The notes: generated by a model from the letters alone, not told the origin. Positions 24,324-51,835 are shown, counted from the stretch's first letter. The stretch is 64,000 nt of DNA from Anaerolineales bacterium (GCA_035498395.1 DATKAF010000297.1:930-64929), one strand, 5' to 3'. Program-made: numbers and translations.

Positions 24324-24329
24324 CCCGGC

Positions 24330-29101: not shown

Positions 29102-29979
29102 TTCAAGATCCCGCTGCGCCGCAGCTCCAGCAGCACCAACTGGTCCCAAGGCCGCGCGGTGCTGAATTGGACGTATCCGACGCCGTGCTTTCTACATTCA
29201 CCCCGGGTGTCCCGAATCCAGGAGCGCACGCGGTCCTGGTAGAGCGTCCGCAATCTGCCATCTAGCGAGACAACCTGCTGCGCGCCGGTTTCCACATCGA
29301 CCAACTGCAGGTCTCCGCTCAATGGCGGGTCAAGCTCATCGGGCGAGAGCAAGTGCAGGATCGCCGCTTCGCTTCCGCGCGCCAGCAACGGCCGCAGCCC
29401 GAGCTCCGGCTGGTCCGCGGAGAGGAGGTCGGAAATGAGGATGACCAGCCCGGGGCGCCGCGGCGTCACCGCGAACTGATGAAGGGACTCATTCAGTTGT
29501 GTACTACCGCCCGGCTGGAGTCCCTCCAGCACATCGAACATCCGCGAGAGCGAGGCCTCGCCTCGCATCGGACCGAAGCCTGCCCTTATTCCGCCGCTTT
29601 GCAGCAAGGCGAAGGATAACGCGTCACCGGATGCCAGAGCGATGGCTCCCAGCCCGGCGCAAAGCCGGAGGGCATACAGGAACTTGTGTTGCTCGCCCTC
29701 GCCCCAATCCATAGAGCGCGAGCCGTCGAGCAGGATATAAACGGCGAGGTCCTCTTCCTCTTCGAACATCTTGATAAAGGGCCGCTCCAGCCGCGCATAG
29801 ATGTTCCAGTCGAGGCGCCGCAGATCGTCGCCGGGCGTGTAATCGCGGTAGTCGGCGAACTCTACGCTGCTGCCGCGCCGGGACGAGCGCCGGTCGCCCT
29901 TGATTGCCCCCGTACGGACGCGCGAGGCAACCAGCGTGAGCTGCTTCAGCTTGCGGAGGGTGGTCTCATCGAAGAGCAT
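29098..29979 (-). CDS. DUF58-family protein (MoxR-associated, VWA-like)
   Basis: RRGSSVEFADYRDYTPGDDLRRLDWN and ILLDGSRSM are the canonical DUF58 motifs. Confidence 0.85.
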   Translation of the reverse strand: MLFDETTLRKLKQLTLVASRVRTGAIKGDRRSSRRGSSVEFADYRDYTPGDDLRRLDWNIYARLERPFIKMFEEEEDLAVYILLDGSRSMDWGEGEQHKFLYALRLCAGLGAIALASGDALSFALLQSGGIRAGFGPMRGEASLSRMFDVLEGLQPGGSTQLNESLHQFAVTPRRPGLVILISDLLSADQPELGLRPLLARGSEAAILHLLSPDELDPPLSGDLQLVDVETGAQQVVSLDGRLRTLYQDRVRSWIRDTRGECRKHGVGYVQFSTARPWDQLVLLELRRSGILK

Positions 29980-37345: not shown

Positions 37346-38083
37346 TCAATCGAAGAGGGTCTCGTTCATCGGCCTCATGCCGAGCATGAACAACCGCGAT
37401 TTCTCGGGCTGAGTGACGGCGAAGACGACCGCCTCCGCCACATCTTGAGGATCCATGTATTCCGGCAATTTCGCATCCTGCGGCGTGCGACCCGTTCCGA
37501 AGGCGTGGCGCGTGTTGACGCTGCCGGGCACGATCAGGCTGACCTTGACGCCGACCTTGATGGCCTCGTGGTCCAGCGCGCGGGCGAAGCCGACCTGGGC
37601 GTGCTTGGAAGGGGCGTACCCCGTCTCGTTCGGCAGGCCCATCAGCCCGGAAACCGAGGCCACGATCACCACCCAGCCCTGCCTGCGCTCCGCCATGCCC
37701 GGGAAAAAGGCCTTGGTAAAGAGGAATGTGGAGCGCATGTTGGTATCCATCATCCAGTCATAGTCCTCGATGGTCATCTCGGAGAACGGGGCATACTTGG
37801 CGATGCCGACATTGTTCACGAGGATGTCCACTTCATCATACAGCGCGAGGGTGGCGTCCCGGACGCGGGCTACGTCTTCATCCAGCCGCGCGTCGCCGGG
37901 CACAGCCAGGCCCTTTCCACCTTGCGACTCGATCTCGCCCACGAGCTGCTTCAGCGCATCGGCGTTGCGAGCAGTCACCACCACAGCGGCTCCTTCACGC
38001 GCCAGGGCCAGCGCGGTAGCGCGGCCGATGCCCTCACTGGCGCCGGTTACCAGCGCGATCCTGCCATCCAAACGTCCGCTCAT
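37346..38083 (-). CDS. SDR-family oxidoreductase
   Basis: VTGASEGIGRA cofactor motif and catalytic YAPSK. Start at M8, 5 nt after AAGGAGG. Confidence 0.9.
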   Translation of the reverse strand: MSGRLDGRIALVTGASEGIGRATALALAREGAAVVVTARNADALKQLVGEIESQGGKGLAVPGDARLDEDVARVRDATLALYDEVDILVNNVGIAKYAPFSEMTIEDYDWMMDTNMRSTFLFTKAFFPGMAERRQGWVVIVASVSGLMGLPNETGYAPSKHAQVGFARALDHEAIKVGVKVSLIVPGSVNTRHAFGTGRTPQDAKLPEYMDPQDVAEAVVFAVTQPEKSRLFMLGMRPMNETLFD

Positions 38084-38113
38084 CTCATCCTCCTTTGACC
38101 GCATTAACGAGAC

Positions 38114-39553
38114 TCAAGCACCCGGCTGCGCGCCCTTCCATACTTTGGCCCACAGGTCTTCCCGATCCCAGTTCAGGAAGATGAACATATCGCCGACCGT
38201 GAGCCGCTTGCGCATGAGCGGAGCGCTCAGGAACGCGAACAGGGCCTGCTCCTTCGATTTCGGCGGCACCAGCCCCCTGAACGTTAGCGGTCCTCCGGTG
38301 GCCTGGATAATGTCGAGGATGTCTTTTGGCGTGCGTGTCCATGCCGCGAGCTTCGGCTGTATCTCGGGCCAGGTCTTGAGGAACTGCTCGAAGCGAGGGC
38401 GCTGCGCGTGCCAGGCCTCCAGCTTCAGGCGATAGTCTGCCCAGCATTCCTCGCCGGCCTTGCCGCTCGGGTCGACCTGGAGGAACACCTGCCGGATGCG
38501 GGCGCTCATGGCGGCGGGGTCGGGATAGCAGGCGTCCACATTGACCTCGCTCGCGTCGAACTCCTGCATGAAGCGCTGGTACGCCTCGGCTGCCAGCAGC
38601 GTGGTGAGGGCCACCTGGGACCCGTGCTGGGCCAGCGGCTGAGCCGCGGCCTCCGCCAGCAGGTCGAGAATGTGAGACATGACATGCTCGTAGCCGGACA
38701 TGGGCGTGGTGGCGTGGGAGAGGGACATCGCCAGCCCGCCCAGCGCGATCATCTTGGCGAGGACAGCCATGCCTTCCGGCGAGCGGTCTCGGATGCTCTG
38801 AGCCGATTCGCGGAAGATCGTATCGAGCGGTCCCATGAGGTCCTGCGCCAGCTCGCTGTAGCTGTCGTCCATGCCGAGTTGGTTCGCAAGGTACCAGTCC
38901 GGCAGGCTGACGAAGGCGGCGAGCAGATCGCCGACACCGGCGGCGGTCATCTCGTAGGGCGCATCGGCGAGCGTTTCCATGTCGCAGACCAGCGCATCGG
39001 GGTAGCGCGAGGCGAGGGTGCGCTTGACGCCGTCGACGAAGGTAGGCGCCATATTGGACGTGAAAGCGCTGACGCTATTCGCCGTCTGGAAGACGACGAG
39101 ATTGGAGCGCGTGCCCGTTTCTTTTTCACAGAGATAGCTGGCGTGCTTGGTGATGTCGCAGACCGTGCCCGACCCAACTGCCAGCAGGGTCATGCCCTCC
39201 CGGATATGCTGCTTGACCGCCTCGATGTGCGGCATGTCGGTGTGGACCTGGCCGGTGGTGTCCGGCTGCATGACGACCGGCTCGACGCGCCAACCCGCGG
39301 AAGCCAGGACCTGCTGTACGAGCTCCTTCAAATCCTTGCCTTGGCGCGACATCGGTGTGTTATCCATGACCATGAGCACGGGCTTGGCCGGGTCGCCTTT
39401 CGCCCGCTTCAGCACGTCGGGCAATTTGTACACGGCATCCGACTCAAAGAGCATGATAGGAATGGGCATGTGCTCGCCCGCCGGATAGCCGGGCAGTCTC
39501 TCGATAGCCTGCCAAAAGGCGGGTCCCTCCGCGGGGTCGTATTGAAGCTTCAT
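38114..39553 (-). CDS. Iron-containing alcohol dehydrogenase superfamily, sn-glycerol-1-phosphate dehydrogenase (AraM/EgsA)-like
   Basis: LLAVGSGTVCDITKHASY, VVFQTANSVSAFTS, AAGVGDLLA and HVMSHILD follow the G1PDH/Fe-ADH pattern, with about 100 extra C-terminal residues. AAGGAG SD upstream. Confidence 0.7.
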   Translation of the reverse strand: MKLQYDPAEGPAFWQAIERLPGYPAGEHMPIPIMLFESDAVYKLPDVLKRAKGDPAKPVLMVMDNTPMSRQGKDLKELVQQVLASAGWRVEPVVMQPDTTGQVHTDMPHIEAVKQHIREGMTLLAVGSGTVCDITKHASYLCEKETGTRSNLVVFQTANSVSAFTSNMAPTFVDGVKRTLASRYPDALVCDMETLADAPYEMTAAGVGDLLAAFVSLPDWYLANQLGMDDSYSELAQDLMGPLDTIFRESAQSIRDRSPEGMAVLAKMIALGGLAMSLSHATTPMSGYEHVMSHILDLLAEAAAQPLAQHGSQVALTTLLAAEAYQRFMQEFDASEVNVDACYPDPAAMSARIRQVFLQVDPSGKAGEECWADYRLKLEAWHAQRPRFEQFLKTWPEIQPKLAAWTRTPKDILDIIQATGGPLTFRGLVPPKSKEQALFAFLSAPLMRKRLTVGDMFIFLNWDREDLWAKVWKGAQPGA

Positions 39554-39567
39554 AGGGATGCTCCTTG

Positions 39568-39924
39568 CTAGTATTGGATGACCTGACAGGTGAGCTGCAG
39601 GCCGTAGAGTACGGTCAGGATGCCAACGATCCACAGAATCACATCGACCGCGAGTTGCGACCGGGGCGAAAGCCCCAGGTCACTGAAGATGGCGCGGAGG
39701 CCGAGGAGCGCATGCGCGGCAACCACGACCAGAAAAGAAAGCTCGAGCGCGAGGGCGACCGGCTGGCGCAGGTATGCCACGACTTCGTTAAAGTCCCGCA
39801 AGCCCCCGGCCGCAAGGAAATGCTGCGCGATGAGGTGCACACCGACCAGCACGACCAGCGCCGCGCCGGAAACCGCCTGCAAGAACCAAACCCAACGCGA
39901 CCGGTCCGCCTGCATAGAACCCAT
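39568..39924 (-). CDS. Succinate dehydrogenase/fumarate reductase membrane anchor subunit-like (SdhD-like)
   Basis: 118 aa with three TM helices and a His in helix 1/2 (GVHLIAQHF). The ATG directly abuts the upstream stop. Confidence 0.65.
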   Translation of the reverse strand: MGSMQADRSRWVWFLQAVSGAALVVLVGVHLIAQHFLAAGGLRDFNEVVAYLRQPVALALELSFLVVVAAHALLGLRAIFSDLGLSPRSQLAVDVILWIVGILTVLYGLQLTCQVIQY

Positions 39925-40290
39925 CTACTTCATCGCCATGGCTGCGAGGCCAAGAGCAGTGAGGGCCAACGCGATCAGCAGGCAAGCCCAGAAGATGTGC
40001 TTTTGGTATGGCAGCAAGAGGCCGAGCCCAACGAGAATAAGCCGTAGACCATTCAGGCCGTGGATGAGGACGCCGAAGAACAGCAGGGCGTCGAGGAGGA
40101 GCACCAGCGGCGAGCGCATCAGCTCCAGGAAGCCATTCCAGGCCTGCGGCCCCTGCCGGAGCTGGTTCAGCAGGGCGAGGTGCAGAAACAGATAGGCCAC
40201 CAGCCCGATGCCCGAGAGGCGGTGCAGCATGAAGGCTAGCATGCTCGGCGCTTTGACGCGCAGTGTGAACCAGCGACTGTGCGTTTGCAA
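39925..40290 (-). CDS. Succinate dehydrogenase cytochrome b subunit-like (SdhC-like)
   Basis: HRLSGIGLVAYLFLH (the HR-SG motif of SdhC) and three TM helices. TTG start directly after the upstream stop. Confidence 0.7.
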   Translation of the reverse strand: MQTHSRWFTLRVKAPSMLAFMLHRLSGIGLVAYLFLHLALLNQLRQGPQAWNGFLELMRSPLVLLLDALLFFGVLIHGLNGLRLILVGLGLLLPYQKHIFWACLLIALALTALGLAAMAMK

Positions 40291-41028
40291 CTAGGTGCGC
40301 TCCCGAGCCGAGGCGCCGAGCAGACGCGCGCGCAGCTTCATGATCTCGCGGGCAGGGTCCACGTTCGCCGGGCAGACCTCCGAGCACTCGAAGACGCCAT
40401 GGCAGCGCCACAGCCCTTGCTCGTGGTCCACGCGAGCGAGGACGTCGGCCAATAGCCGCCCACGCGGCTCGGTCGCGAGGCGTCCTGCAGCAGCCAGCAT
40501 GGCGGGGCCGGCATATTGGGCATCCTGCCCTGCCACCGGGCAGGCGCTCACGCACAGCCCGCACTCGATGCAGTTCTCGAAGCGATTGAAGGCGGCGGCG
40601 AGGTCCGGTGCGGTGTGCTCCTCGATGCGCTCGAGGTTAGGGCGGCTGCCGAGGGGATCGACGCGGCGGCGCAGCGGCATATCGAGTGAGTCAAGCTTGT
40701 GCATGAACGGGTTAAATTCCACGAGCAGGTCACCGATGACCGGGAAATTACGCAGCGGCTCGAGCTGCACGAGTCGATGCCCGCGGAGCACGTCACGGAG
40801 AGGGGTGACGCAGGCGAGCTTTTCCCGCCCATTGACGCGCAGGCCGCAACTGCCGCAGGAGGCATGATGGCACGAATGCCGGAAGAGCAGGCTGCCATCC
40901 TGAGCGCCGGCTGCCTCGAGGGCGTCCAGCACGTAGGCGCCCGGTGAGACCTGAACGTCGTATTCCTGCCAGCCGGAGGTTCGCTTGATACGCAGCCGCA
41001 ATGGGGTCAACTCCATGCGCCGATCCAT
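40291..41028 (-). CDS. Succinate dehydrogenase/fumarate reductase iron-sulfur subunit-like (SdhB/FrdB-like)
   Basis: 2Fe-2S motif CHHASCGSCGLRVNGREKLAC, 4Fe-4S motif CIECGLCVSACP and third-cluster motif CHGVFECSEVCP. Start at M57 (41028) or M61 (41016); both overlap the end of the flavoprotein gene. Confidence 0.85.
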   Translation of the reverse strand: MDRRMELTPLRLRIKRTSGWQEYDVQVSPGAYVLDALEAAGAQDGSLLFRHSCHHASCGSCGLRVNGREKLACVTPLRDVLRGHRLVQLEPLRNFPVIGDLLVEFNPFMHKLDSLDMPLRRRVDPLGSRPNLERIEEHTAPDLAAAFNRFENCIECGLCVSACPVAGQDAQYAGPAMLAAAGRLATEPRGRLLADVLARVDHEQGLWRCHGVFECSEVCPANVDPAREIMKLRARLLGASARERT

Positions 41029-42167
41029 TTCCGGTGCGAGAGCAATGGCAGATCGCGTGTGCGGCAGGCGGACTGGATGTCCAGGAACTCGCAGACCTGA
41101 TCGGCGGTTTTTTCGGCCATGAGCCGGGCGGTGGTCGTCTTGCCGCCCACGACGGAGAAAAAGCCCGGGGCGCCACCGGCCGCATGGTCGATGCACTTGA
41201 ATGCTCTTGTTGTGGCCCGCCCGCCCGCCCCCTCCACGAGGAGAAGCGGCCGCGCCGCTGCCATCGCGCCGCGCTGGCGCGCCTGCCGGATGGCGGGGAT
41301 CATGGCGCCCGCGACCTCCAGAATGGATTCGATCTGCTCTGGCGAGATGGGGATGTCATCGGGATCATCCACCTTCCAGGAGGTTGTTCCGAGGATGCTG
41401 GTCTGCCGCTGCGGAACGATGATGTCGCCATCTCCGGGCGGGGCAAGCAGGTTGATAACCATGTTGCAGACGCGCCGGTCGATCGTTAGCATGGCGCCCG
41501 CGGACGGCTCCAGAGGCACATGCGATCCGGCGAGGGCTGCGACCGAGCCAGCCCACGGTCCTGCGGCGTTGATCACCACGTCCGCGTGAAGGCTCTCTGT
41601 TGCGTTCGTCCGCCGGGAGCGAATCACTACCGTCCGGTTGGCGGTATCGAGCTGCACGACCTCGCAGAAGGTGCGCACCTCAGCGCCGTTCCGGCAGGCT
41701 GTGGCGAGGAAGCTGAGGCACAGGCGGTAGGGGTCGAAGACGCCATCGGGAACCTGGATGGCGGCGAGGATACGCTGGTCGAGCAGAGGCTCCAACTGCA
41801 AGGCCTCTTCGACGGGAAGCTCGCGCACCGGAATGCCCGAGTCCGAACAGCCTTCCAGGAACGCACGGCGGTATGCCATGCCCGGCTCATCCAACGCCAC
41901 GAAAAGCCCGTCGTTGAGCTCCAGCCCTTCGGGGAGGATGCGCCTGAGGATCCAGTTTTCCTGGATGCACTCCCGCGCCGATTCGGGGTCATTGACCGCG
42001 TAACGCGCCCCGGAGTGAAGCTGTGCCTGATTGTGCCCGGTGGCACCGCTTGCCACACCTGCCCGGTCAACCACCGTGACCTGCAGGCCACGCAGGCTCA
42101 GGTCATGCGCCAGCGCCGAGCCGGTGGAACCCGCTCCGATCACCACGGCGCGCGCTGGCGCAGCCAT
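41007..42167 (-). CDS. FAD-dependent glycerol-3-phosphate dehydrogenase-like flavoprotein (GlpA/GlpD family, short form)
   Basis: Dinucleotide fold VVIGAGSTGSALAHDL, SGATGHNQAQLHSGARYA (GlpD/GlpA signature region) and C-terminal GGKTTTARLMAE. At 386 aa it has no SdhA-like covalent-FAD or capping-domain features. Confidence 0.8.
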   Translation of the reverse strand: MAAPARAVVIGAGSTGSALAHDLSLRGLQVTVVDRAGVASGATGHNQAQLHSGARYAVNDPESARECIQENWILRRILPEGLELNDGLFVALDEPGMAYRRAFLEGCSDSGIPVRELPVEEALQLEPLLDQRILAAIQVPDGVFDPYRLCLSFLATACRNGAEVRTFCEVVQLDTANRTVVIRSRRTNATESLHADVVINAAGPWAGSVAALAGSHVPLEPSAGAMLTIDRRVCNMVINLLAPPGDGDIIVPQRQTSILGTTSWKVDDPDDIPISPEQIESILEVAGAMIPAIRQARQRGAMAAARPLLLVEGAGGRATTRAFKCIDHAAGGAPGFFSVVGGKTTTARLMAEKTADQVCEFLDIQSACRTRDLPLLSHRKWIGAWS

Positions 42168-43018
42168 CAGCCGGCCTTCTCCAGCCAGTCTGCGACACCC
42201 CCCAGGTTCTCAAAGATGTAGTCCGGTTTGTGCGGCGAGCCTGCGACGTCCTCCGGCTTGGTCTCGCCGCTCAGGACGAGTACGGTGGTGATGCCGCTCG
42301 AAGCGCCGAGAGCAATATCGGTGTACAGCCGGTCGCCGATCATGCCGAGTTGCTCCACCTTGAGCCCCATCTTGGAGGCGGCGGCTTCGACGATCATCCG
42401 GTTCGGCTTCCCAACGATCAGGTCCGGCTCGCGGCCGGTGGCGGCCTTGACGAAGGCGATCATGGCGCCAACATCGGGCATCCAGCCGGTCTCTGTCGGA
42501 CAGTTGAAGTCGGCATGGGTGGCAATATAGGGGACGCCGGCGCGCACGAGATCGCACAGCTTCCACAACTTCTTGTAAGTCAGGGTCTGGTCAAAGCCCA
42601 GGACGATGAACTGGGGGTTCTCCTCCGTCAGCTCGAAGCCGTGCTGGCGAAATTCCTCTTCGAGCGGCGGCGTGCCAACCACGAAGAGGCGCGCCGCGGG
42701 GTTGTGATCCTTCAAATACACGGCGGTGGCTTCACCGGAGGTGAGCACAAGCTCCTCCGGCAGCGGCAGCCCGAGGCGCGTGATCTTCTCCGCGTATTGC
42801 CGCCCCTGCTTGGAGGAGTTGTTGGTCAGGAAGAGGAACTGCTTGCCCTGTGCGCGCAGCAGGTCGATGAAACGAAGCGCTCCTTCGAGCAGCCGGTCGC
42901 CCAGGTAGAAGGTGCCGTCCATGTCCAGCAGGAAGCAGCGCACCGCGCCGAGCTTTGGGTCATCGTTCAGGATGCCGGCATGTGACGGATTGGAAGAGTG
43001 CCACGGATCTGTAGTCAA
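42167..43018 (-). CDS. HAD-IIA family phosphatase (NagD-like)
   Basis: Nucleophile motif FLLDMDGTFY, LFLTNNS and MIGDRLYTDI. A TTG start at 43016-43018, downstream of GAGG, is proposed because the track ORF extends over the upstream kinase gene. Confidence 0.75.
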   Translation of the reverse strand: MTTDPWHSSNPSHAGILNDDPKLGAVRCFLLDMDGTFYLGDRLLEGALRFIDLLRAQGKQFLFLTNNSSKQGRQYAEKITRLGLPLPEELVLTSGEATAVYLKDHNPAARLFVVGTPPLEEEFRQHGFELTEENPQFIVLGFDQTLTYKKLWKLCDLVRAGVPYIATHADFNCPTETGWMPDVGAMIAFVKAATGREPDLIVGKPNRMIVEAAASKMGLKVEQLGMIGDRLYTDIALGASSGITTVLVLSGETKPEDVAGSPHKPDYIFENLGGVADWLEKAG

Positions 43019-43029
43019 TGGTGTGAGCC

Positions 43030-44571
43030 TCAATTTGCCTGCAAGCCCGCGAGCTGATCGAAGACGGGCAGCAGGGAATGGTAAGTGGAGCGGTAGAGCT
43101 GATAGTAATCCTCGTAGATTCGCTGGGTGTGCGGGTCGGGATCGAGCACATCCACGATCTGAACCGTCTGGCTGGCGGCTTCCTGAAGAGAGGGCACCAG
43201 CCCGGCGCCGACGAGCGCCAGCATGCCCGCGCCGAGGGCGGTCGTCTCGGTGGTCTGCGGGAGTGCCACGGGCAGGCCGGTGACATCGGCCTTGATCTGC
43301 CGCCACAGCCGACTCTGCGCGCCGCCTCCGACGACCCGGATCTGCTCGGGCTGCAGTCCCATCTTGCGCATCTGGTCGGTGTTATCGCGCACGGCATAGG
43401 CAGAGCCTTCCAGCAGGGCGCGGACGAAGTGTGCGCGCGTGTGCGAGAGGGAAAAGCCAAAGTACGTGCCGCGCGCGGCCGCATTCCAGGTGGGGGCCAG
43501 CGCGCCCATCAGACATGGCAGAAAGATCAGCCCATTCGAGCCGGGCGGCGCCTGCGCGGCAAGCTCATTCAGGAGATCGTATGGATTCCCGCCGCTCGCC
43601 GAAGCGGACTGGACCTCCTGGGCCGAGAACTCGTCGCGGAACCAGCGATAGTTCGCCCCGGATGCGAAGCCCGGGTTTTCGATGAGCCAAAGCTCGGGGT
43701 CGGCGTGACAGTGCGTCTCCACCAGGCCGATCGGGTCGAAGAGCGGCGCGGTGCTGGAGACGCAGACCGGCTCGGCGGTCCCGGCGATATCGCAGATGAG
43801 GCCGGATCGCATCACGCCCGCGCCGAGGCAGGCGGCGTGCTCATCGCCGCTGCCGAGGATCACGCGGGTGGAAGGCTTGAGTCCCAGATCCTCGGCGATG
43901 CGCGGACGCAGCGTGCCGATCTCGGTAAGGGATGACAGGATGGGAGCGAGCCGCTCGATATCGATCTCGAAGCTGGCGCACATCTCCGGCGACCATGACC
44001 GGGTGCGCACGTCCATCAACATCGTGGAGGAGGCGTTCGAGGCGTCGACGCCCAACTCACCGGTCAGGTAGTAGGCTGCGTAGCTGCCAGGCAGCAGGAA
44101 GTGGGCGGCCTTGTGATAGACCTCGGGCTCGCGATCCGCCAGCCAGCGGATCTTGGGAGCGACGTGCGATGGGTCGATATTGAGGCCGGTGATCTGGAAC
44201 ACTTCCTCAGAAGTACGGCTCTGCATGACCGCATTGCATTGGTCGACCGCGCGACGGTCCATCCAGATGATGGCAGGCATGAGGGGCGTACCCGCCTTGT
44301 TGACCGGCACGACGCCGTCCACCTGCGCGTCGAGGCCGATGGCCTTGACCTGCTCCGCCGGGACGCCGGCCTCGGCAAGGAGCTGACGGACCGCGCTGCA
44401 CAGCGCGTCTGTCCAGCGGTTGACCGGCTGATCGGCCCAGGTGGGATGCGGATAATCGATGCCGTAGCCAGAGGTGGCAGAGCCCGCCAGCCTGCCCTCC
44501 GCCGTCAACAAAATGACCTTGACCCCCTGCGAGCCAAGGTCGCAACCGATCACATATTCCATGTGAGTCAT
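43030..44571 (-). CDS. FGGY-family carbohydrate kinase (xylulokinase/glycerol-kinase-like)
   Basis: YVIGCDLGSQGVK phosphate-1 motif, GSGDEHAACLGAG, and C-terminal GGGAQSRLWRQIKADV. Confidence 0.9.
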   Translation of the reverse strand: MTHMEYVIGCDLGSQGVKVILLTAEGRLAGSATSGYGIDYPHPTWADQPVNRWTDALCSAVRQLLAEAGVPAEQVKAIGLDAQVDGVVPVNKAGTPLMPAIIWMDRRAVDQCNAVMQSRTSEEVFQITGLNIDPSHVAPKIRWLADREPEVYHKAAHFLLPGSYAAYYLTGELGVDASNASSTMLMDVRTRSWSPEMCASFEIDIERLAPILSSLTEIGTLRPRIAEDLGLKPSTRVILGSGDEHAACLGAGVMRSGLICDIAGTAEPVCVSSTAPLFDPIGLVETHCHADPELWLIENPGFASGANYRWFRDEFSAQEVQSASASGGNPYDLLNELAAQAPPGSNGLIFLPCLMGALAPTWNAAARGTYFGFSLSHTRAHFVRALLEGSAYAVRDNTDQMRKMGLQPEQIRVVGGGAQSRLWRQIKADVTGLPVALPQTTETTALGAGMLALVGAGLVPSLQEAASQTVQIVDVLDPDPHTQRIYEDYYQLYRSTYHSLLPVFDQLAGLQAN

Positions 44572-44580
44572 GAGACTTGT

Positions 44581-45366
44581 TTAAAGATCTCCCAGATGCT
44601 CGGCGCGCTCCACTTCGTCCACATCGTTGTACCACTTGACCCGTGGGCCGACCTGCGCGCGCGCCCGCCATGACAGCGACTTGGGCGCCTCTTCGATCAT
44701 CTGGCCCAGCGTGTCGATGCGGTCATTGATGTTCCGGACATCCTGGTCACTGAACAGCTGCCGGTAGGTCTCTGATCCCTTGCGAATCTTCTCCAGGCTT
44801 AGGGAGTTCGTGTAATAGAAGCCCCAATCCTTGCTGAGCAAACCGGCGATGTGCTTGCCGTTGATCGTTTCATTATCGTTGTCGCCCACGGGGTGCGCTG
44901 CGAGGAGGATCAGCATATCCTTGATATCCTTCGGGTTGAGCGTCACGATCTGCGTCTTTTCCAGCACCAGCTCCGCCAGCGGGATGGTGGGCGAATCGAT
45001 CTCGAGCCGGTTCTTGAATGGAATCTTGTGGCAGAAGCTCAGCTCGTCAAGGAACACGTCAATGTGGATACCGTTGCTCGGGTGAGTGAAGATGCGCCGA
45101 GTGGCGAATAACTCGGGCGTGAGGGCTGCCACCGTGAGAACGTAACCCTCGCTCTTCAGGAAGGCCTCCATGGCCCGGTCCTGCTTGCTGTAGCCTACAA
45201 AGTCAATGTCCGTCAGGGGGCGATCCATGGCCTCGTGAACGGATACATACTCCGGGCTGTGGATCCGGAAGGCCGTCGAGCCGAGGATACGCAGGTATAC
45301 GCCCCTGGCTTGGGCCCGCTCTACGAGTCCGAGCGCCTCACTGACGAAATGACTGTTGGCCGCCAT
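44581..45366 (-). CDS. Hypothetical protein with a pol-beta-type nucleotidyltransferase fold motif
   Basis: ILGSTAFRIH...PLTDIDFVG (GS ... DxD). Start at the ATG at 45364-45366, 5 nt after GGAGG. Confidence 0.5.
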   Translation of the reverse strand: MAANSHFVSEALGLVERAQARGVYLRILGSTAFRIHSPEYVSVHEAMDRPLTDIDFVGYSKQDRAMEAFLKSEGYVLTVAALTPELFATRRIFTHPSNGIHIDVFLDELSFCHKIPFKNRLEIDSPTIPLAELVLEKTQIVTLNPKDIKDMLILLAAHPVGDNDNETINGKHIAGLLSKDWGFYYTNSLSLEKIRKGSETYRQLFSDQDVRNINDRIDTLGQMIEEAPKSLSWRARAQVGPRVKWYNDVDEVERAEHLGDL

Positions 45367-45403
45367 CCATACCTCCGCTTGCTTAAAGATGCACCGTATT
45401 TTA

Positions 45404-46393
45404 CTAGCCCATTGTAAACGTGTAGTTCTCGAGTTTCTGCTTCGACAACTCGATGACGACGCCGCGGAGCACACCCTCGCCGTACTCGCTGCCCGGGTTG
45501 ATGCACATGGTCCGGCCCAGCTTCTGCGCGGAGCGGCTTTCATGGATATGCCCATGCAGACCCAGCAACGGCTGGTATTTCTCGATGGCGGCGCGCACGG
45601 CGGTGCTGCCCACCGGAATCATCTTGAAGCCGCCGGAGAGCGAGAGCTTCGGTGTTAAGTTGGGATCCAGCTCCGGGGCAACATCCAGGTTCGTGTCATA
45701 GGGCGGCACATGCAGGTTGAAAACCGCGTTCGCTGGGTTCTTTACCTTGCCTGCCACACCCTCGATCCGCCGCGTGAGCTCCTCTTCCGGCAGGTCGCGC
45801 GGACACTGCCAGGGCGTCTGGTTCGCGGCGCCCACGCTGATCATCTGATGATCGTCATCCAAGTCTACAACGGTCTCGTCCACATTCATCACGCACTCGG
45901 ACTGCTTCAAGGCTTCGTCGATCTCGTAGGGATCGTCGTTGCCGGGCTGGACGTAGCACTTGATGCCCGTGCCGCGCAGCCGCTCATCCGCAATCTGGAG
46001 CCAGGTGGTGATGCGCTGCTTGGCCAGCTGCGCGAAATGCTGCTCTACGAGGCTCTTGTCCTCGCCAAATGCCCGAACTTCATCCGGGGATACACGGATA
46101 GGGTACAAGCCCGAATCCTCGAGCGTCTGCTCAAGGTGCTTGAGCTCGTCGCCGTCGGCGACATCGTACACTTTGCCAAGATAATTGGCACGAAAGCTGT
46201 GGTTGGCCTGTTCCACGAGCGGAACGATCATTTTGCCAACCATATCGCCCCCCAGGATGATGACCTGCGCCTCGTAAAACTTGCCGGAGTTGATGAACTT
46301 CTTAAAGACTCTGGTCGAGCCGTGCACGTCGGTGGTAAAGAAAAGGCGGATCTTCTTTGAACTTCCAAAAGGACTCATGGGACCTCCGGACAA
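45404..46393 (-). CDS. Metallophosphoesterase (calcineurin-like)
   Basis: Motifs FTTDVHGS (DxH), LGGDMVG (GD), QPGNDD (GNHD-like) and GLHGHIHES (GHxH). Confidence 0.8.
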   Translation of the reverse strand: MSGGPMSPFGSSKKIRLFFTTDVHGSTRVFKKFINSGKFYEAQVIILGGDMVGKMIVPLVEQANHSFRANYLGKVYDVADGDELKHLEQTLEDSGLYPIRVSPDEVRAFGEDKSLVEQHFAQLAKQRITTWLQIADERLRGTGIKCYVQPGNDDPYEIDEALKQSECVMNVDETVVDLDDDHQMISVGAANQTPWQCPRDLPEEELTRRIEGVAGKVKNPANAVFNLHVPPYDTNLDVAPELDPNLTPKLSLSGGFKMIPVGSTAVRAAIEKYQPLLGLHGHIHESRSAQKLGRTMCINPGSEYGEGVLRGVVIELSKQKLENYTFTMG

Positions 46394-46402
46394 TTCCAGT
46401 AT

Positions 46403-46443
46403 GTAACCCGCAGGCCGCGGTTCAGGTTCGGCCTGCGGGTTAC
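46403..46443. other. Perfect 15-bp GC-rich hairpin between the permease and phosphoesterase genes
   Basis: GTAACCCGCAGGCCG-N11-CGGCCTGCGGGTTAC. No U-tract on either strand. Confidence 0.6.
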
Positions 46444-46473
46444 TTCACGCTTGAAACACTATATGGAGGGCTG

Positions 46474-48117
46474 CTAATCTGGCGGGACCTCGCGGAAGCG
46501 CTTGTCGAGCGACACGCCGCGCCGCTTATTCATGTAGATCGCGACGAAGTACAAGATGATCGGCAAGATCATGTAGAAGCCGAACGAGACACCAAGCGCA
46601 GGCAACTGGGCGTAGACCGAGGCACCCTGGAAAAATGGTAGGAGGGTGGCATACATCACGAAAATGCTGATGATGAAGCCCACCACACCCCACACCACGA
46701 TGGCGGGGGCACCCAAGAGCTTCTGGCGCGTGACCTCAGGAGCCTTATCCCAGATGTCCTTGCGCCGCCACGGGAAGACGATCGCAGCGATGCTCAGGAA
46801 CATCCACCCGAAGAACCAAATGGTGATGGTATAGACCTGGTAGGCCGAAAGGAGCGGCGTAATGCAGTTGACGGTGAACTGGAACCAGGCGATCACGAAG
46901 CCCAACAGCACGGCATAAACCGGCGAGCCGCGGCGGTTGACTTCATTGAACTTGGGCGGCAGCATGCCGTCGAATGAATAGGCGAACAGGTTGCGCACCG
47001 GTGCGAACGCCAGGCCCATCGCGCCTACCCAGTTGATCAGGCCCCAAGCAAATGGGCCGCCAATGAGCAGCAGGAACGGATTCTGAGTGGCGTACACCAT
47101 CAGGTACGGGATCTGCGGGAAGGCCTTGAAGATCGGCACGTCCGCGCCCTGCGAGTTCAACTTGGAGATGGCTTGCAACAGGTCCACACCAACGCCGTGG
47201 TAGGTCACATACGTGAAGATCTCGTAGTAGACGATGAACAGGATGATCGACCCGTACTGCGCCAGCGGCTGAGCCTTATCGACGCGCTTGATCTCGCCCG
47301 CGATGTTAGCCGAGTATGTAGAGCCAAGGCAGGTGAGGTTCATGAAGGTCATACCGGCCAGGACGGTGGGCAGGAGGGCGTAAAGGCCGGGCTGCCACCC
47401 CAGAGACCTCGCCTGGGCCAGGACATTCTGGTAGTCGATGTTCTGCACGGCCTTCATGCCGGCTGCCACAACGGTGGGGTTCACGCTCAGCATGACGATG
47501 GCGTAGACGGCCAGCATGACCCAGGTAAGTATCATGGCTGCCCACACGAAGCGCATGAACAGCTTGATGCCGCGATAGATCACGTAGAAGGAGAGCATCA
47601 GGGAGATGGTGCCCATGATCCAGACCAACCACGAGCCCTGAGTCTTGGCCATCTCGGTGCCGAGGCTGAACATGGCCTGGTTCTTGTAGACAAGACCCAA
47701 CTGCATGAACGTGTGGCCGAAGCCCCAGTTGATCACGTAGTTGGTGTTGTTACCCTGCCAGTTCAACCCGACGATGGTCAGCGTCCAGGAGGCGATGAAG
47801 CCGAGGAAGGGAGTCAGCACTCGGCTGATGTAGATGTACTCGCCGCCGGAGCGGGGCATGCTCGCCGAGAAGTAGACATAGATCGCAGCGAAGGGTAACA
47901 GGGAGATCATGAACAGGATGGCAATCTGCATGTTAGCGCCCGCGAACAGGGTCACGGACCACAGCAGGTAGAAGCTCGCCTGCGTGATGTTGGGCGCCAC
48001 AAATGAGTACGCCAGGGCTGTCCATGGACTGACCACACGCGTCAGGCCGGACGCTTTGCGGGAGAAGACATCGCCCGCTTGTTGTGCAGCCATTTGGGCT
48101 GCATCTTGTACAGTCAT
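46474..48117 (-). CDS. APC-superfamily permease
   Basis: 547 aa with about 12-13 TM helices. The N-terminal region contains ...SMPRSGGEYIYISR, the typical APC signature. Confidence 0.85.
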   Translation of the reverse strand: MTVQDAAQMAAQQAGDVFSRKASGLTRVVSPWTALAYSFVAPNITQASFYLLWSVTLFAGANMQIAILFMISLLPFAAIYVYFSASMPRSGGEYIYISRVLTPFLGFIASWTLTIVGLNWQGNNTNYVINWGFGHTFMQLGLVYKNQAMFSLGTEMAKTQGSWLVWIMGTISLMLSFYVIYRGIKLFMRFVWAAMILTWVMLAVYAIVMLSVNPTVVAAGMKAVQNIDYQNVLAQARSLGWQPGLYALLPTVLAGMTFMNLTCLGSTYSANIAGEIKRVDKAQPLAQYGSIILFIVYYEIFTYVTYHGVGVDLLQAISKLNSQGADVPIFKAFPQIPYLMVYATQNPFLLLIGGPFAWGLINWVGAMGLAFAPVRNLFAYSFDGMLPPKFNEVNRRGSPVYAVLLGFVIAWFQFTVNCITPLLSAYQVYTITIWFFGWMFLSIAAIVFPWRRKDIWDKAPEVTRQKLLGAPAIVVWGVVGFIISIFVMYATLLPFFQGASVYAQLPALGVSFGFYMILPIILYFVAIYMNKRRGVSLDKRFREVPPD

Positions 48118-48262
48118 ATGCGGTCTCCTTTCAGGATCAGTTTACGAAACATACTGCAAACTTTCCTTGCTTGCGTGCCTTCGGCCCTTCTCAAGTCTTT
48201 CCGCTCCTCCTTTCGTGAATGCCTGCAACTGGAAGAATGAAAACCTGTCGGTCCTGACTGCG

Positions 48263-49072
48263 CTAGTAGTGAGGACCCTTCCTCTGGATGACAAACGTGA
48301 TCTTGTCCGTCAGGTGATATTCCTCTGAGAAGATGATCGGGTGACGCGCTTCATCGCTATCCGTCTGGCTGATCAGCAGCAATGTGCTGTGGCGCGGAAC
48401 CTGCAGTTTCTCGGCCACATCCTTGGGCGCCGCAATGGGCAGCAACACCGCGGTACCCTGGTAGATGCGGATGCCGTGGTGCTTCTCGAGGTAGTCGTAC
48501 AGCGACTGGTCTTTCAACTCACTCTCGTTGGGAGATCGGCCGTCGAGGATGGAGGCCGGCAGGCGCTCGTCCGACCAAACGATGGGCGTATCATTTGCCA
48601 GCCGGAGGCGCCGAACGACATAAATGGGATCGCCCTCGGCAAGCTGGAGATGCTCGGCGACCCTCGCACTGGCAGGCTCGCGGTGTACGTCACACTGGAT
48701 GGTCTTGGGAGTGAAGCCGGCCTGCCGAATCATCTCGGTGATGCCGAAGTTGATGCTCAGGTCTTTTACGATGGAACGCTCGGAGACAAATGTGCCCAGG
48801 CCGCGCCGGCGGGTGATGCGCCCCTGCTCTTCCAGCGTTCGCAGAGCCTCGCGCAGTGTTGTGCGCGATACCCCGAGAATCTGCATGAGCTCCAGCTCCG
48901 ATGGCAGCTGGCTTCCCTGTGGAAACCGGTTGCTACGGATAGCGTCCCCGATGGCGCTCACGGTCGCGTCCGTCAGAGTCCGGCGCTTCGGCCGTACGAT
49001 GGTTGGCTGAAACTCGGTCACTTTATCCACGCTAGCTGCTATCCTTCTCTCTCTTTCGAGAACAGAGGACAA
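48263..49072 (-). CDS. GntR-family transcriptional regulator, HutC subfamily (UTRA effector domain)
   Basis: wHTH QLPSELELMQILGVSRTTLREALRTLEEQGRITRRRGLGTFV, followed by a UTRA-like C-terminal domain. The track start is a TTG overlapping the kinase by 34 nt. An alternative GTG lies at 49030. Confidence 0.85.
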   Translation of the reverse strand: MSSVLERERRIAASVDKVTEFQPTIVRPKRRTLTDATVSAIGDAIRSNRFPQGSQLPSELELMQILGVSRTTLREALRTLEEQGRITRRRGLGTFVSERSIVKDLSINFGITEMIRQAGFTPKTIQCDVHREPASARVAEHLQLAEGDPIYVVRRLRLANDTPIVWSDERLPASILDGRSPNESELKDQSLYDYLEKHHGIRIYQGTAVLLPIAAPKDVAEKLQVPRHSTLLLISQTDSDEARHPIIFSEEYHLTDKITFVIQRKGPHY

Positions 49073-50571
49073 AGCGCGTTATAGAGGTCGACGTACGTTC
49101 GGAAAGCGGCGTCATAGATGGATGCGTTCGCGGCGGTAGGCTCGAAGCGGTCCTTGATCTGGACCATCTGCCCGACCGCTTCCTCGACGCTGGAGTACAG
49201 CCCGACGGCCTTGCCTGCCAGGATGGCAGCGCCCAGCGTAGCCGCTTCTTCATTGGAGGTGGTCAGAACCGGACGGCCGGTGATATCGGCCTCGATCTGT
49301 TTCCAGACGCGGCTGCGCGCGCCGCCGCCCAGGGCCCGGATCTCCCTGACCGGGACTCCCATGCCCTCGATGACCTCGATATTGCGGCGCACGATAAAGC
49401 AGACAGACTCCATGATGGCGCGCGTGAAGTGATTCCGGCCATGCCGCAGCGTGAAGCCGTAGAAGACGCCTCTGGCGTCGGGGTTCGCCTCGGGGGCCAT
49501 GGCTCCCTGCAAGTGGGGCAGCATGACAAGGCCCTCGCACCCGGCAGGGACCTTTTCCGCCTCCCGCCCAAGCAGATCGTAGGCGTCCATGCCGCTAAAC
49601 TTGCCCACCGACATTTCCAACTGGGCGAATTCATCCCGGAACCAGCGCAGGACGATTCCGCCGCTGGTAAACGTATGGAGCATGTATAGTCCGGGGAGGC
49701 CGTGGTAATGACAGGGCATCTGGTCCGCCGGATCGAGCGTGGCATGCTCGACGCTGGCGCAGATGGCAAGCGCCGCGCCGGTATTCTCGCTAAAGACGCC
49801 GGGCTTGATGTTCCCCACGCCGATCGCGCCGCACGCCTGGTCCAGCGCGCCTGTGCAGACCCGCGTCGCGGGAGAGAGGCCGAGCTCCGCGGCGACATCG
49901 CTGCGAAGCGTGCCGACCACCTCGCCGGACTCACAGTAGGGGGGCAGCTGCCCGGCGCGGACACCAAGCGCATCCAACATTTCGGGCCACCACTGGCGTG
50001 TGCGGAAATTCCAGTAGCAGGTGGATGTAACCAGCGAACCCTCGCAGGCGTATTCCCCGGTCAGCCGGTGGAGGAAGTAGTCTTCGATCAATAAGAACTT
50101 GTCCACCTGCTCATAGGTCTTCGGTTCGTGGTTGCGGACCCACAGGATCTTGGAGGCCGGCCACGTCGGCACGAGCTTGACCTGACCAGTGATCTCGTAG
50201 GCGTGGCGATGGCCAAACTTCTCGCCCAGCTCGGCGGCTTCCTGCTGTGCACGGTTATCCAGCCAGACGATAGCGCGGCGCAGGGGACGACCACTCTTGT
50301 CGGCCAGGATCAACGTTTCGCCCTGGGCGGAGACTCCCAAGGCTTTAATGCTGGCAGGGTCGGCCGCCGACTCTTTGACGACGCTTCCGAGGGCGGATTT
50401 GAAGGCCTCCCAGTAGGTCTCCACATCCACTTCCACGGAGTCCGGATCGGGAGTGATCAATTCGTATTCAACCGAGGCTTTTGCCAGCACATTGCCGCGC
50501 AGGTCGTGCAGTGCGCATTTGAGCGCCGTGGTGCCCAGATCGAAAGCGAGGATCGTATCCATGCTGGTCAC
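49039..50571 (-). CDS. FGGY-family carbohydrate kinase
   Basis: ILAFDLGTTALK, CTGALDQACGAIGVG and GGGARSRVWKQIEADI. ATGA overlap with the cupin stop. Confidence 0.9.
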   Translation of the reverse strand: MTSMDTILAFDLGTTALKCALHDLRGNVLAKASVEYELITPDPDSVEVDVETYWEAFKSALGSVVKESAADPASIKALGVSAQGETLILADKSGRPLRRAIVWLDNRAQQEAAELGEKFGHRHAYEITGQVKLVPTWPASKILWVRNHEPKTYEQVDKFLLIEDYFLHRLTGEYACEGSLVTSTCYWNFRTRQWWPEMLDALGVRAGQLPPYCESGEVVGTLRSDVAAELGLSPATRVCTGALDQACGAIGVGNIKPGVFSENTGAALAICASVEHATLDPADQMPCHYHGLPGLYMLHTFTSGGIVLRWFRDEFAQLEMSVGKFSGMDAYDLLGREAEKVPAGCEGLVMLPHLQGAMAPEANPDARGVFYGFTLRHGRNHFTRAIMESVCFIVRRNIEVIEGMGVPVREIRALGGGARSRVWKQIEADITGRPVLTTSNEEAATLGAAILAGKAVGLYSSVEEAVGQMVQIKDRFEPTAANASIYDAAFRTYVDLYNALCPLFSKEREG

Positions 50572-51002: not shown

Positions 51003-51031
51003 TTGACAAATGGCGAAACGGTCGTTATAAT
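51003..51031 (+). promoter_or_regulatory. Consensus sigma70 promoter (TTGACA-N17-TATAAT)
   Basis: Exact hexamers at 51003-51008 and 51026-51031, about 100 nt upstream of the plus-strand gene at 51134. Confidence 0.7.
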
Positions 51032-51043
51032 ATGTACTACGTC

Positions 51044-51060
51044 ACGATGTCAGACATCGT
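51044..51060. promoter_or_regulatory. Perfect palindrome ACGATGTC-A-GACATCGT, candidate GntR/HutC-type operator
   Basis: 17-bp dyad 13 nt downstream of the -10 box. A related half-site ATGACAGAC lies at about 51065. Confidence 0.5.
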
Positions 51061-51133
51061 TACATATGACAGACTATAGCAAATTTCACATGCGCTGTCA
51101 AGTACCTTTCACCATGACGAAGGGACCACGATC

Positions 51134-51835
51134 ATGAAACCAGCCTTCATCCTCATGCTCACCTACAATGACCAGACCGTCAAGAACGCGCTGGAGCTGT
51201 TCCGTGAATGCAAGAACCTGCCCGTCACCCACTGGGGCTTCAAGGATGTCGGGCTGCCCGTCGATCAGATGAAGCAGCTCGTGCGCGAGATGAAGCAGGC
51301 GGGCAAGACCACGTACCTGGAGGTCGTGAGCCTGTCCGAGGAAGAAGGGCTGGCGGGCGCAAAACTGGCGGTCGAGGCCGGGTTCGATATCCTGATGGGG
51401 ACGGTATTCTTCGACTCCATTCTGGACTATCTGAAGGACAAGCCGATCAAGTACTATCCGTTCCCAGGGCACGTATACAGCCATCCGAGCATCCTGGACG
51501 GCACCATCGAGGAGATCGTCAAGCACGCGAAGTTCCTCGAGGGCCGCGGCGTGCAGGGAATGGACCTGCTGTCGTACCGCTACGTGGGCGACGCCCCGGC
51601 CCTGCTGTGGGCGGTCGTAGCCGCCACCAGTGTACCGATCGTCTCGGCAGGTTCCATTGAATCGTATAAGCGCCTGGGAGAAGTGTGGGAGGCCGGGGCG
51701 TGGGGCTTCACGATCGGAAGCGCATTGTTCGACAAGAAGTTCGTGCCGGATGGCTCCTTCCAGGACAACACGCTGGCGGTGTGCGATTGGCTCGAGAAGA
51801 GGGCGGAAGCGGAGGGCATGAAATCCGGCTCGTAG
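51134..51835 (+). CDS. Hypothetical protein, probably a (beta/alpha)8-barrel phosphate-binding enzyme
   Basis: Ordinary protein composition, unlike the antisense ORF 51098-51868. The alternating pattern and C-terminal SVPIVSAGSIES ... FTIGSALF resemble ribulose-phosphate-binding-barrel enzymes. No specific family recognised. Confidence 0.55.
   Translation: MKPAFILMLTYNDQTVKNALELFRECKNLPVTHWGFKDVGLPVDQMKQLVREMKQAGKTTYLEVVSLSEEEGLAGAKLAVEAGFDILMGTVFFDSILDYLKDKPIKYYPFPGHVYSHPSILDGTIEEIVKHAKFLEGRGVQGMDLLSYRYVGDAPALLWAVVAATSVPIVSAGSIESYKRLGEVWEAGAWGFTIGSALFDKKFVPDGSFQDNTLAVCDWLEKRAEAEGMKSGS

Follow-up and report, generated by a model that had tools for sequence, protein, structure and literature searches.

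A type of glycerol-3-phosphate (G3P) dehydrogenase termed GlpA-SdhBCD has been named from gene order in Thermofilum pendens and related archaea (Schmerling et al., Commun Biol 2025, bioRxiv 2024; PMC11962113). Thermofilum GlpA (Tpen_1127) is almost without C-terminal extension and is followed by sdhB, sdhC, and sdhD homologues, for which membrane anchoring and electron transfer were proposed; bacterial glpA is said to co-occur consistently with glpB and glpC (PMC11962113). In this study, a bacterial arrangement of the same kind was analysed in a 64,000-nucleotide (nt) stretch of DNA from an Anaerolineales bacterium (GCA_035498395.1, DATKAF010000297.1:930-64929), referred to below as the window. 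Positions 39568-42167 of the window hold the gene of a GlpA-type flavoprotein, GlpA', followed by the genes of an SdhB/FrdB-type iron-sulfur subunit, SdhB', and of two membrane anchors, SdhC' and SdhD'. This feature is real and non-random, and the pairing of GlpA' with complex II subunits is conserved. Its best explanation, which is considered likely, is a four-subunit oxidoreductase that passes electrons from G3P, or from a closely related polyol phosphate, to menaquinone.

A first interpretation of this DNA, hereafter the sequence-only reading, had described the module without knowing of a characterised example. With regard to biochemistry this holds, as the literature search found neither a description of the bacterial module nor a biochemical characterisation of any member, whereas the GlpA-SdhBCD type had already been named from archaeal gene order (PMC11962113). 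The GlpA-SdhBCD idea is not new; new here is its bacterial spread across three phyla, and the present analysis adds the prediction of a type-A dihaem anchor, an SdhB-C-D fusion, an anchor-less form in Spirochaetota, and a subclade with non-GlpK kinases. As in Thermofilum, GlpA' of the window ends almost without a C-terminal extension past the DAO fold and is followed by sdhB, sdhC, and sdhD homologues. Unlike the archaeal system, the window module is bacterial and belongs to a kind that spans Chloroflexota, Bacillota, and Spirochaetota, and no glpK lies beside it, GlpK being present in the relatives L017 and L021 (related loci carry L numbers throughout). Cluster look-ups of 20 short representatives returned Chloroflexota or Bacillota names or none, and no archaeal name. 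With the most divergent of the SdhB-linked members as query, a search reached Spirochaetota and not Archaea.

The interval 39568-42167 consists of exactly four consecutive and tightly packed open reading frames (ORFs), all on the minus strand. GlpA' (41007..42167) is a flavoprotein of 386 amino acids (aa) that binds flavin adenine dinucleotide (FAD) in a DAO fold and carries both motifs quoted in the sequence-only reading. SdhB' (40291..41016) has 241 aa, with an alternative ATG at 41028; a mechanically called ORF of 301 aa with a GTG start was rejected as an over-extension. The two three-helix anchors are SdhC' (39925..40290), which has 121 aa, a TTG start, and the sequence HRLSG, and SdhD' (39568..39924), which has 118 aa, or 115 aa with the alternative ATG at 39915, the start chosen by the gene caller in the identical contig L001 from a metagenome assembly in the European Nucleotide Archive. 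The junctions were read directly. The GlpA' stop codon TGA (41009-41007) lies inside the SdhB' gene, giving an overlap of 10 nt, or of 22 nt with the earlier ATG, the SdhB' TAG is directly abutted by the TTG of SdhC', and the SdhC' TAG by the ATG of SdhD'. ORF calls and junctions thus bear out the earlier description of four consecutive genes, with an overlap between flavoprotein and iron-sulfur genes and with anchor genes starting at the preceding stops. Of the profiles that had been suggested for checking it, DAO, Fer2_3, Fer4_8, and Sdh_cyt gave matches.

GlpA' matches Pfam DAO at 6.5e-51 and the GlpA equivalog model TIGR03377 at 1.4e-119 and 400.1 bits. Of the 530 profile positions, the match extends over 2-378 and positions 379-530 are absent in GlpA', which leaves the score below the model's cutoff of 552.8. 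GlpD models score the protein at 88 bits, far under the GlpA model. Of the GlpA/GlpD-type head named in the sequence-only reading, the GlpA part therefore stands and the GlpD part does not, with the qualification that the GlpA C-terminal domain is lacking. Canonical GlpA representatives have a Fer2_BFD domain, for which the Pfam scan gave no match in GlpA'. In the alignment every family member ends about 10 aa past the last motif shared with canonical GlpA, at the point where canonical GlpA enters its BFD-like [2Fe-2S] domain. An AlphaFold2 model of GlpA' (predicted local distance difference test 87.9, predicted template modelling score 0.87) shows only a short terminal helix at residues 378-384. 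The model superposes best on GlpD and GlpO, with template modelling (TM) scores of 0.80-0.84, and less well on glycine and sarcosine oxidases (0.6-0.75). The motifs LHSGARY, AARPL, GR..(T/S)R, and GGKTTT.R.MAE are invariant in the family and align with motifs of solved G3P dehydrogenases and oxidases. Presumably these shared motifs include Arg54, Arg317, Arg332, and Lys354 of E. coli GlpD, which we take to be substrate or phosphate contacts. In L005, L014, L016, L018, and L029, many of them MFD-series contigs of metagenome-assembled genomes (MAGs), the GlpA' frame is interrupted or shortened and SdhB' is intact; the interruptions look like assembly frameshifts rather than pseudogenes.

Comparison with described G3P-oxidising enzymes sets the flavoprotein apart from each of them. 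With E. coli GlpABC it shares the GlpA-clade flavoprotein and its FAD and substrate motifs, at 37-43% identity to canonical BFD-containing GlpA. Unlike GlpABC, however, the window has neither a BFD-like [2Fe-2S] domain nor adjacent glpB and glpC, an SdhB-like subunit stands in their place, and membrane attachment is predicted to occur via integral haem b anchors rather than via GlpC. Because the BFD domain and glpBC are missing and the score is under the cutoff, the module is not GlpABC. In their FAD and substrate domains, the aerobic GlpD (E. coli, 2QCU) and GlpO come closest in fold to GlpA'. GlpD, however, works as a monotopic homodimer with direct quinone reduction, has a C-terminal domain of about 120 aa, needs no iron-sulfur partner, and shares only about 21% sequence identity. 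The biochemically characterised GlpA-CoxG of Sulfolobus acidocaldarius (Saci_2032/2031) likewise combines a truncated GlpA head with a membrane partner other than the lost GlpB and GlpC. That partner is a small CoxG-like protein without iron-sulfur clusters or haem, in contrast to the full complex II electron wire found here.

SdhB' contains the Pfam domains Fer2_3 (5.6e-23) and Fer4_8 (2.2e-12) and passes the dhsB subfamily model TIGR00384 with 188 bits against a cutoff of 88. It stays under all equivalog cutoffs for SdhB and FrdB, the best scores being 183 against 344, 175 against 228, and 146 against 333. GlpC models match only the region of the 4Fe-4S motif, with 39.5 bits against a cutoff of 278. 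The best matches in the Protein Data Bank (PDB) are 6lum_B (2.2e-34) and E. coli FrdB (1kf6_B, 3.9e-34). Cysteine residues 49, 54, 57, 69, 149, 152, 155, 159, 205, 211, and 215 are invariant in 16/16 family members from three phyla, and these 11 are the ligand positions for the [2Fe-2S], [4Fe-4S], and [3Fe-4S] clusters in SdhB and FrdB. The three cluster motifs ascribed to this subunit from the DNA alone are accordingly all present.

The anchors were likewise recognised as members of the succinate dehydrogenase family. SdhC' matches Sdh_cyt at 5.4e-11, just passes TIGR02970 (54.1 bits, cutoff 52.3), and matches 6lum_C at 6.3e-14. SdhD' matches Sdh_cyt at 7.7e-12 as well as 6lum_C and 6lum_D. 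Among the solved relatives of SdhB' and the anchors, E. coli FrdB and FrdC rank after the 6LUM subunits. A Kyte-Doolittle scan gave three hydrophobic segments in each anchor, in agreement with the earlier account of two small three-helix proteins, one with an HR-SG motif. The structure of Mycobacterium smegmatis Sdh2 (6LUM) is dihaem, with the axial ligand pairs His C87/D107 and His C47/D65 (PMC7447783). In the family alignment, invariant histidines of SdhC' correspond to C47 and C87, and invariant histidines of SdhD' to D65 and D107. Since all four haem-ligand histidines are invariant, the anchor is predicted to be of type A, with two subunits and two haems, a trait that the sequence-only reading had not mentioned; haem binding is a prediction from the aligned residues. 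The module resembles Sdh2, the best solved match for SdhB', SdhC', and SdhD', in its 11 cysteine and four histidine residues and in its two three-helix anchors. It differs in that a DAO-fold head replaces SdhA/FrdA, no SdhF was seen, and SdhB' misses the equivalog cutoffs.

The conservation of the gene order was then assessed in a locus set obtained by a narrow-pattern scan with one genome per species, which yielded 17 loci, all from Chloroflexota. The closest genome records are Chloroflexota/Anaerolineae MAGs with 52-76% identity. SdhB' lies directly after GlpA' in 16/16 Chloroflexota loci with downstream DNA, with an overlap of 4-11 nt in most loci, and SdhC' and SdhD' also follow in all but two of them (L008, with none near, and L009, which ends too early). 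The GlpA'-SdhB' pair was also found in a Bacillota MAG and in Spirochaetota, so that the order is conserved well beyond the window. At least four distinct gene neighbourhoods contain the four-gene core, and in L011-L013 a gene like that of glycerol-1-phosphate (G1P) dehydrogenase is inserted between SdhB' and SdhC'. A search with SdhB' gave at least 120 relatives at 52% identity or more among the matches listed. Contigs were opened for three of these relatives; in each, a DAO gene immediately precedes the SdhB' relative, and no sdhA lies nearby. In the Bacillota MAG GCA_014896355.1 (L021:7220-8935), SdhB, SdhC, and SdhD are fused into a protein of 571 aa that follows GlpK and a GlpA' of 409 aa and keeps all four haem histidines, and P0316 is an SdhB-SdhC fusion. 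Over 120 pairs, the pairwise identity of GlpA' rises and falls with that of SdhB' (r=0.91), and the nearest neighbours of the two proteins agree for the most part. Because such co-variation is also expected from shared descent, it shows co-inheritance and not contact. The idea that every short GlpA-like protein pairs with SdhB was ruled out, as three such proteins at 34-40% identity stand alone. The pairing is thus the mark of a clade rather than of truncated GlpA proteins in general. In the Anaerolineae MAG loci L015 and L019, the module is flanked by genes for an MttB-family methyltransferase, a Cys/Met pyridoxal phosphate enzyme, and an ABC transporter, with no kinase genes.

The four proteins probably assemble into a single quinone-reducing dehydrogenase. 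In the proposed mechanism, the truncated GlpA' would oxidise a phosphorylated polyol at its FAD, most likely sn-glycerol-3-phosphate to dihydroxyacetone phosphate (DHAP). Having no [2Fe-2S] domain of its own and neither GlpB nor GlpC, GlpA' would dock on SdhB'. Electrons could then pass from FAD through the [2Fe-2S], [4Fe-4S], and [3Fe-4S] clusters of SdhB' and via one or both haems b of the type-A anchor SdhC'/SdhD' to menaquinone. The sequence-only reading had likewise predicted a quinone-reducing dehydrogenase on complex II wiring, and this gains support from the conserved adjacency, the fusions, and the glycerol operons described below. Domain content, cluster and haem ligands, gene order, fusions, and the glpK neighbours in two genomes are observed, whereas the complex and its activity are inferred, as are the contact between the DAO-fold head and SdhB', electron transfer to a quinone, and the substrate in the window clade. 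With potentials of about -190 mV for G3P/DHAP and about -74 mV for menaquinone, this electron transfer is energetically downhill. Pairings of DAO-fold subunits with separate 2Fe-2S proteins are known from HcnABC and from heterotetrameric sarcosine oxidase, and the step from FAD to SdhB' is therefore chemically unremarkable.

Several observations count against this model and were weighed together with the alternatives to which they lend support. The first concerns the possibility that SdhB', SdhC', and SdhD' are an ordinary complex II serving an SdhA encoded elsewhere, next to an independent GlpA-like gene for a soluble oxidase or a monotopic dehydrogenase. The earlier statement that the window has no SdhA-like ORF withstood three tests: a six-frame regular-expression search found no SdhA/FrdA/NadB hallmark motifs in the window, a Pfam scan found no FAD_binding_2 domain in ten window ORFs that lie outside the cluster and measure 529-995 aa, and tblastn of the window with a hand-entered sequence of E. 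coli SdhA gave nothing better than E=5. Neither the window nor the 32 related loci searched contain an SdhA with FAD_binding_2 and Succ_DH_flav_C domains, and thus no genuine sdhA that could serve SdhB' was found there. As there is no SdhA, the module is not complex II. The search covered the window and these loci, and a separate sdhA could lie in another part of the genome. An ordinary complex II would also agree with SdhB' passing TIGR00384 and SdhC' just passing TIGR02970, with the succinate dehydrogenase iron-sulfur subunit labels that JGI gives to SdhB' relatives, and with the short GlpA-like proteins that stand alone at 40% identity or less. Yet the overlapping and co-directional genes are conserved over three phyla and in several neighbourhoods, the SdhB' relatives checked all follow a DAO gene and none follows sdhA, and SdhB' fails every equivalog-level SdhB/FrdB model. 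In addition, SdhB' matches 9lay_B at only 1.5e-11, compared with 2e-34 for mycobacterial Sdh2; 9lay_B is deposited as '4Fe-4S ferredoxin iron-sulfur binding domain protein' and is taken by us to be the iron-sulfur subunit of the succinate dehydrogenase from Chloroflexus aurantiacus (PMC12663545). The module further lies inside glycerol operons in L017 and L021, and GlpA' and SdhB' co-vary. An ordinary complex II with a chance neighbour is hence regarded as extremely improbable.

The second group of adverse observations concerns the anchors. In Spirochaetota (L023/L024/L033, including the cultured Sediminispirochaeta and Alkalispirochaeta spp.), an overlapping GlpA'-SdhB' pair occurs with no anchor genes nearby. 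L008:4011-7302, of Anaerolineae type with a G+C content of 54%, has the order GlpA'-SdhB'-G1P dehydrogenase-like gene, and no SdhC' or SdhD' was found within about 6 kb downstream. Since neither has an anchor nearby, GlpA'-SdhB' can evidently work without this anchor, and the functional unit could be a soluble GlpA'-SdhB' heterodimer with a non-quinone acceptor and with optional anchors. Against such a unit, the anchor genes follow immediately in the window, start abutting stop, and also follow immediately in most Chloroflexota loci. The anchors have moreover kept all four haem ligands and are fused to SdhB in L021 and P0316, and a soluble unit appears very unlikely. Two further points speak against the quinone-reducing complex. 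No natural GlpA'-SdhB' fusion was found among the approximately 360 homologues listed; candidates of 580-950 aa proved to be canonical GlpA with BFD, GlpA-GlpB-like fusions, or a cytidylyltransferase fusion, none with Fer2_3. A dihaem anchor, in turn, is usually explained by the uphill step from succinate to menaquinone, and no such need exists for G3P. As for the surroundings of the spirochaetal pair, for example in Sediminispirochaeta bajacaliforniensis, a 461-aa protein with CxxxCxxC/GGDP motifs (lysine-2,3-aminomutase-like by eye) is encoded upstream, and genes of an oxaloacetate decarboxylase Na+ pump lie downstream of the pair.

The identity of the substrate was approached through the genes around the module. 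The L017 operon reads glpF-dhaK-dhaL-glpK-dhaM-GlpA'-SdhB'C'D', and its GlpK scores 763 bits against a cutoff of 590; the kinase upstream of GlpA' in L021 is a GlpK as well, with 698 bits against 590. The fused L021 subunits beside GlpK and the glycerol operon of L017 provide an independent functional linkage, and G3P is the obvious substrate for these two GlpK-linked members. For the window clade the adverse evidence continues, as the two FGGY kinases of the window are XylB/LsrK-like, and neither they nor the kinases of its close relatives are GlpK. A loop of the sequence TGHNQ(A/G)QLHSGARY (GlpA' residues 43-56, window positions of about 42000-42041) occurs in the window-type and DeoC-aldolase-type neighbourhoods, whereas TGRNHGL(L/F)HSGxRY is found in the GlpK-linked members, in L015 and L019, and in canonical GlpA. 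Owing to these kinases and this loop, G3P is not secure as the substrate in the window. The clade-specific loop is a possible determinant of specificity or of flavin tuning.

It is possible, though on balance unlikely, that the same four-subunit quinone reductase acts on another phosphorylated polyol or ketol supplied by the XylB/LsrK-like kinases. Kinase 1 (49039..50571) and kinase 2 (43030..44571), both on the minus strand, are far under the GlpK cutoff of 590 (197 and 229 bits) and just under the XylB cutoff of 380 (369 and 364 bits), and kinase 2 is closest in the PDB to the autoinducer-2 kinase LsrK (3.5e-72). The loop variant TGHNQ(A/G)Q tracks the XylB-like kinases (neighbourhood types I and II), TGRNHGL tracks GlpK and canonical GlpA, and neighbourhoods of type II also encode a DeoC/LsrF-like aldolase and an amidohydrolase. 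A substrate other than G3P would have a precedent in Brucella, where the FGGY-family kinase EryA feeds erythritol-4-phosphate to EryB, a long GlpD-like flavoprotein without an SdhB partner. On the other side, GlpA' keeps all phosphate- and substrate-associated motifs that it shares with solved G3P enzymes, and it retains 52% identity to the GlpK-linked protein of L017. In GlpD, the counterpart of the variable loop is an FAD-contacting stretch just before HGGxRY, and the loop may affect flavin tuning rather than the substrate pocket. Finally, a G1P dehydrogenase homologue in or beside the module and a HAD phosphatase with G3P phosphatases among its relatives keep the chemistry near glycerol phosphate and DHAP. 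Within the model of a four-subunit menaquinone reductase, G3P is slightly favoured as the substrate of the window clade, and another polyol phosphate is a serious alternative. More tentatively still, the window clade, with its loop variant, its two XylB/LsrK-like kinases, its AraL-like phosphatase, and a G1P dehydrogenase homologue beside or even within the module, may not oxidise G3P at all; it may be a so far undescribed polyol-phosphate:menaquinone oxidoreductase, or an enzyme specific for a glycerol phosphate stereoisomer, on a dihaem complex II chassis in an unrecognised pathway of Anaerolineae; glycerophosphodiesters, sn-glycerol-1-phosphate, or a C4-C5 polyol could then be involved.

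If the complex forms as predicted, the iron-sulfur and haem wire of complex II would be a reusable module that accepts a head of unrelated fold, DAO instead of SdhA, which bears on the evolution of respiratory dehydrogenases by subunit swapping. It would also constitute a fourth bacterial route for G3P electrons to the quinone pool, beside GlpD, GlpABC, and GlpO, and extend the archaeal observation to three bacterial phyla. Relatives of SdhB' routinely carry the annotation 'succinate dehydrogenase / fumarate reductase iron-sulfur subunit', and models of succinate dehydrogenase also match the anchors. For this reason, metabolic reconstructions from MAGs of Anaerolineae and Spirochaetota could credit these organisms by mistake with a step of the tricarboxylic acid cycle or of fumarate respiration.

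The module forms the centre of a tightly spaced and co-directional array of 13 genes (50571..37346, minus strand), which the sequence-only reading had not reported. Gene calls and Pfam assignments for the upstream part were taken from the identical contig L001. FGGY kinase 1 is the first gene and is followed on the same strand by a GntR/UTRA regulator (49072..48263), an AA_permease_2 transporter (48117..46474), a 324-aa protein (46393..45404) with metallophosphoesterase-like motifs by eye (DVHGS, GGDMVGK, GNDD, HGHIH), and a 261-aa protein (45366..44581) with a nucleotidyltransferase-like GS...DIDF motif, also by eye. For the latter two, no NCBIfam or PDB-sequence match was obtained, and the L001 gene table holds no precomputed Pfam entry. 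Kinase 2 comes next, and the order of the upstream array is kept in L003, L004, L006, L011-L014, L018, and L020. Between kinase 2 and GlpA' lies a HAD-IIA phosphatase of the NagD/AraL type (42167..43018, minus strand), with Hydrolase_6 and Hydrolase_like domains, a TIGR01460 score of 148.8 bits (cutoff 100), and a PDB match to 1vjr at 5.4e-85; its stop codon and the GlpA' start share 1 nt. On the other side of the module, 14 nt downstream of SdhD', the minus strand encodes the G1P dehydrogenase-like protein of 479 aa (38114..39553; Fe-ADH_2 6.7e-16, NF002022 2.9e-35 and under cutoff, PDB 9h4x 4e-29). The last gene of the array encodes an SDR protein (37346..38104, minus strand; adh_short in L001), is also found in L014, and is followed by a gap of 332 nt. 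An FGGY kinase together with an AraL-like phosphatase and an AraM-like G1P dehydrogenase is reminiscent of the ara operon of B. subtilis.

A scan for terminators and promoters, the latter by pattern match to the sigma-70 consensus with the promoter type of Chloroflexota outside its scope, singled out a consensus promoter in front of the entire array and nothing else. This sigma-70-like match, TTGACA-17-TATAGT with TG (51073..51101, minus strand), agrees at 11/12 positions and lies about 500 nt upstream of the array. It belongs to a pair of back-to-back sigma-70-type matches at 51003-51101, 12/12 on the plus strand and, with TG, 11/12 on the minus strand; the pair lies in the gap that separates the array from a divergent gene for a protein of 233 aa (51134-51835). 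Rfam and tRNA scans of the window found no RNA families or tRNAs. Elsewhere in the window, positions 200-20800 and 24300-29200 hold an exopolysaccharide-type cluster, with GNVR chain-length, Bac_transf, Polysacc_synt, pectate-lyase-like, and GH43-like genes, as well as BatA/VWA-domain genes.

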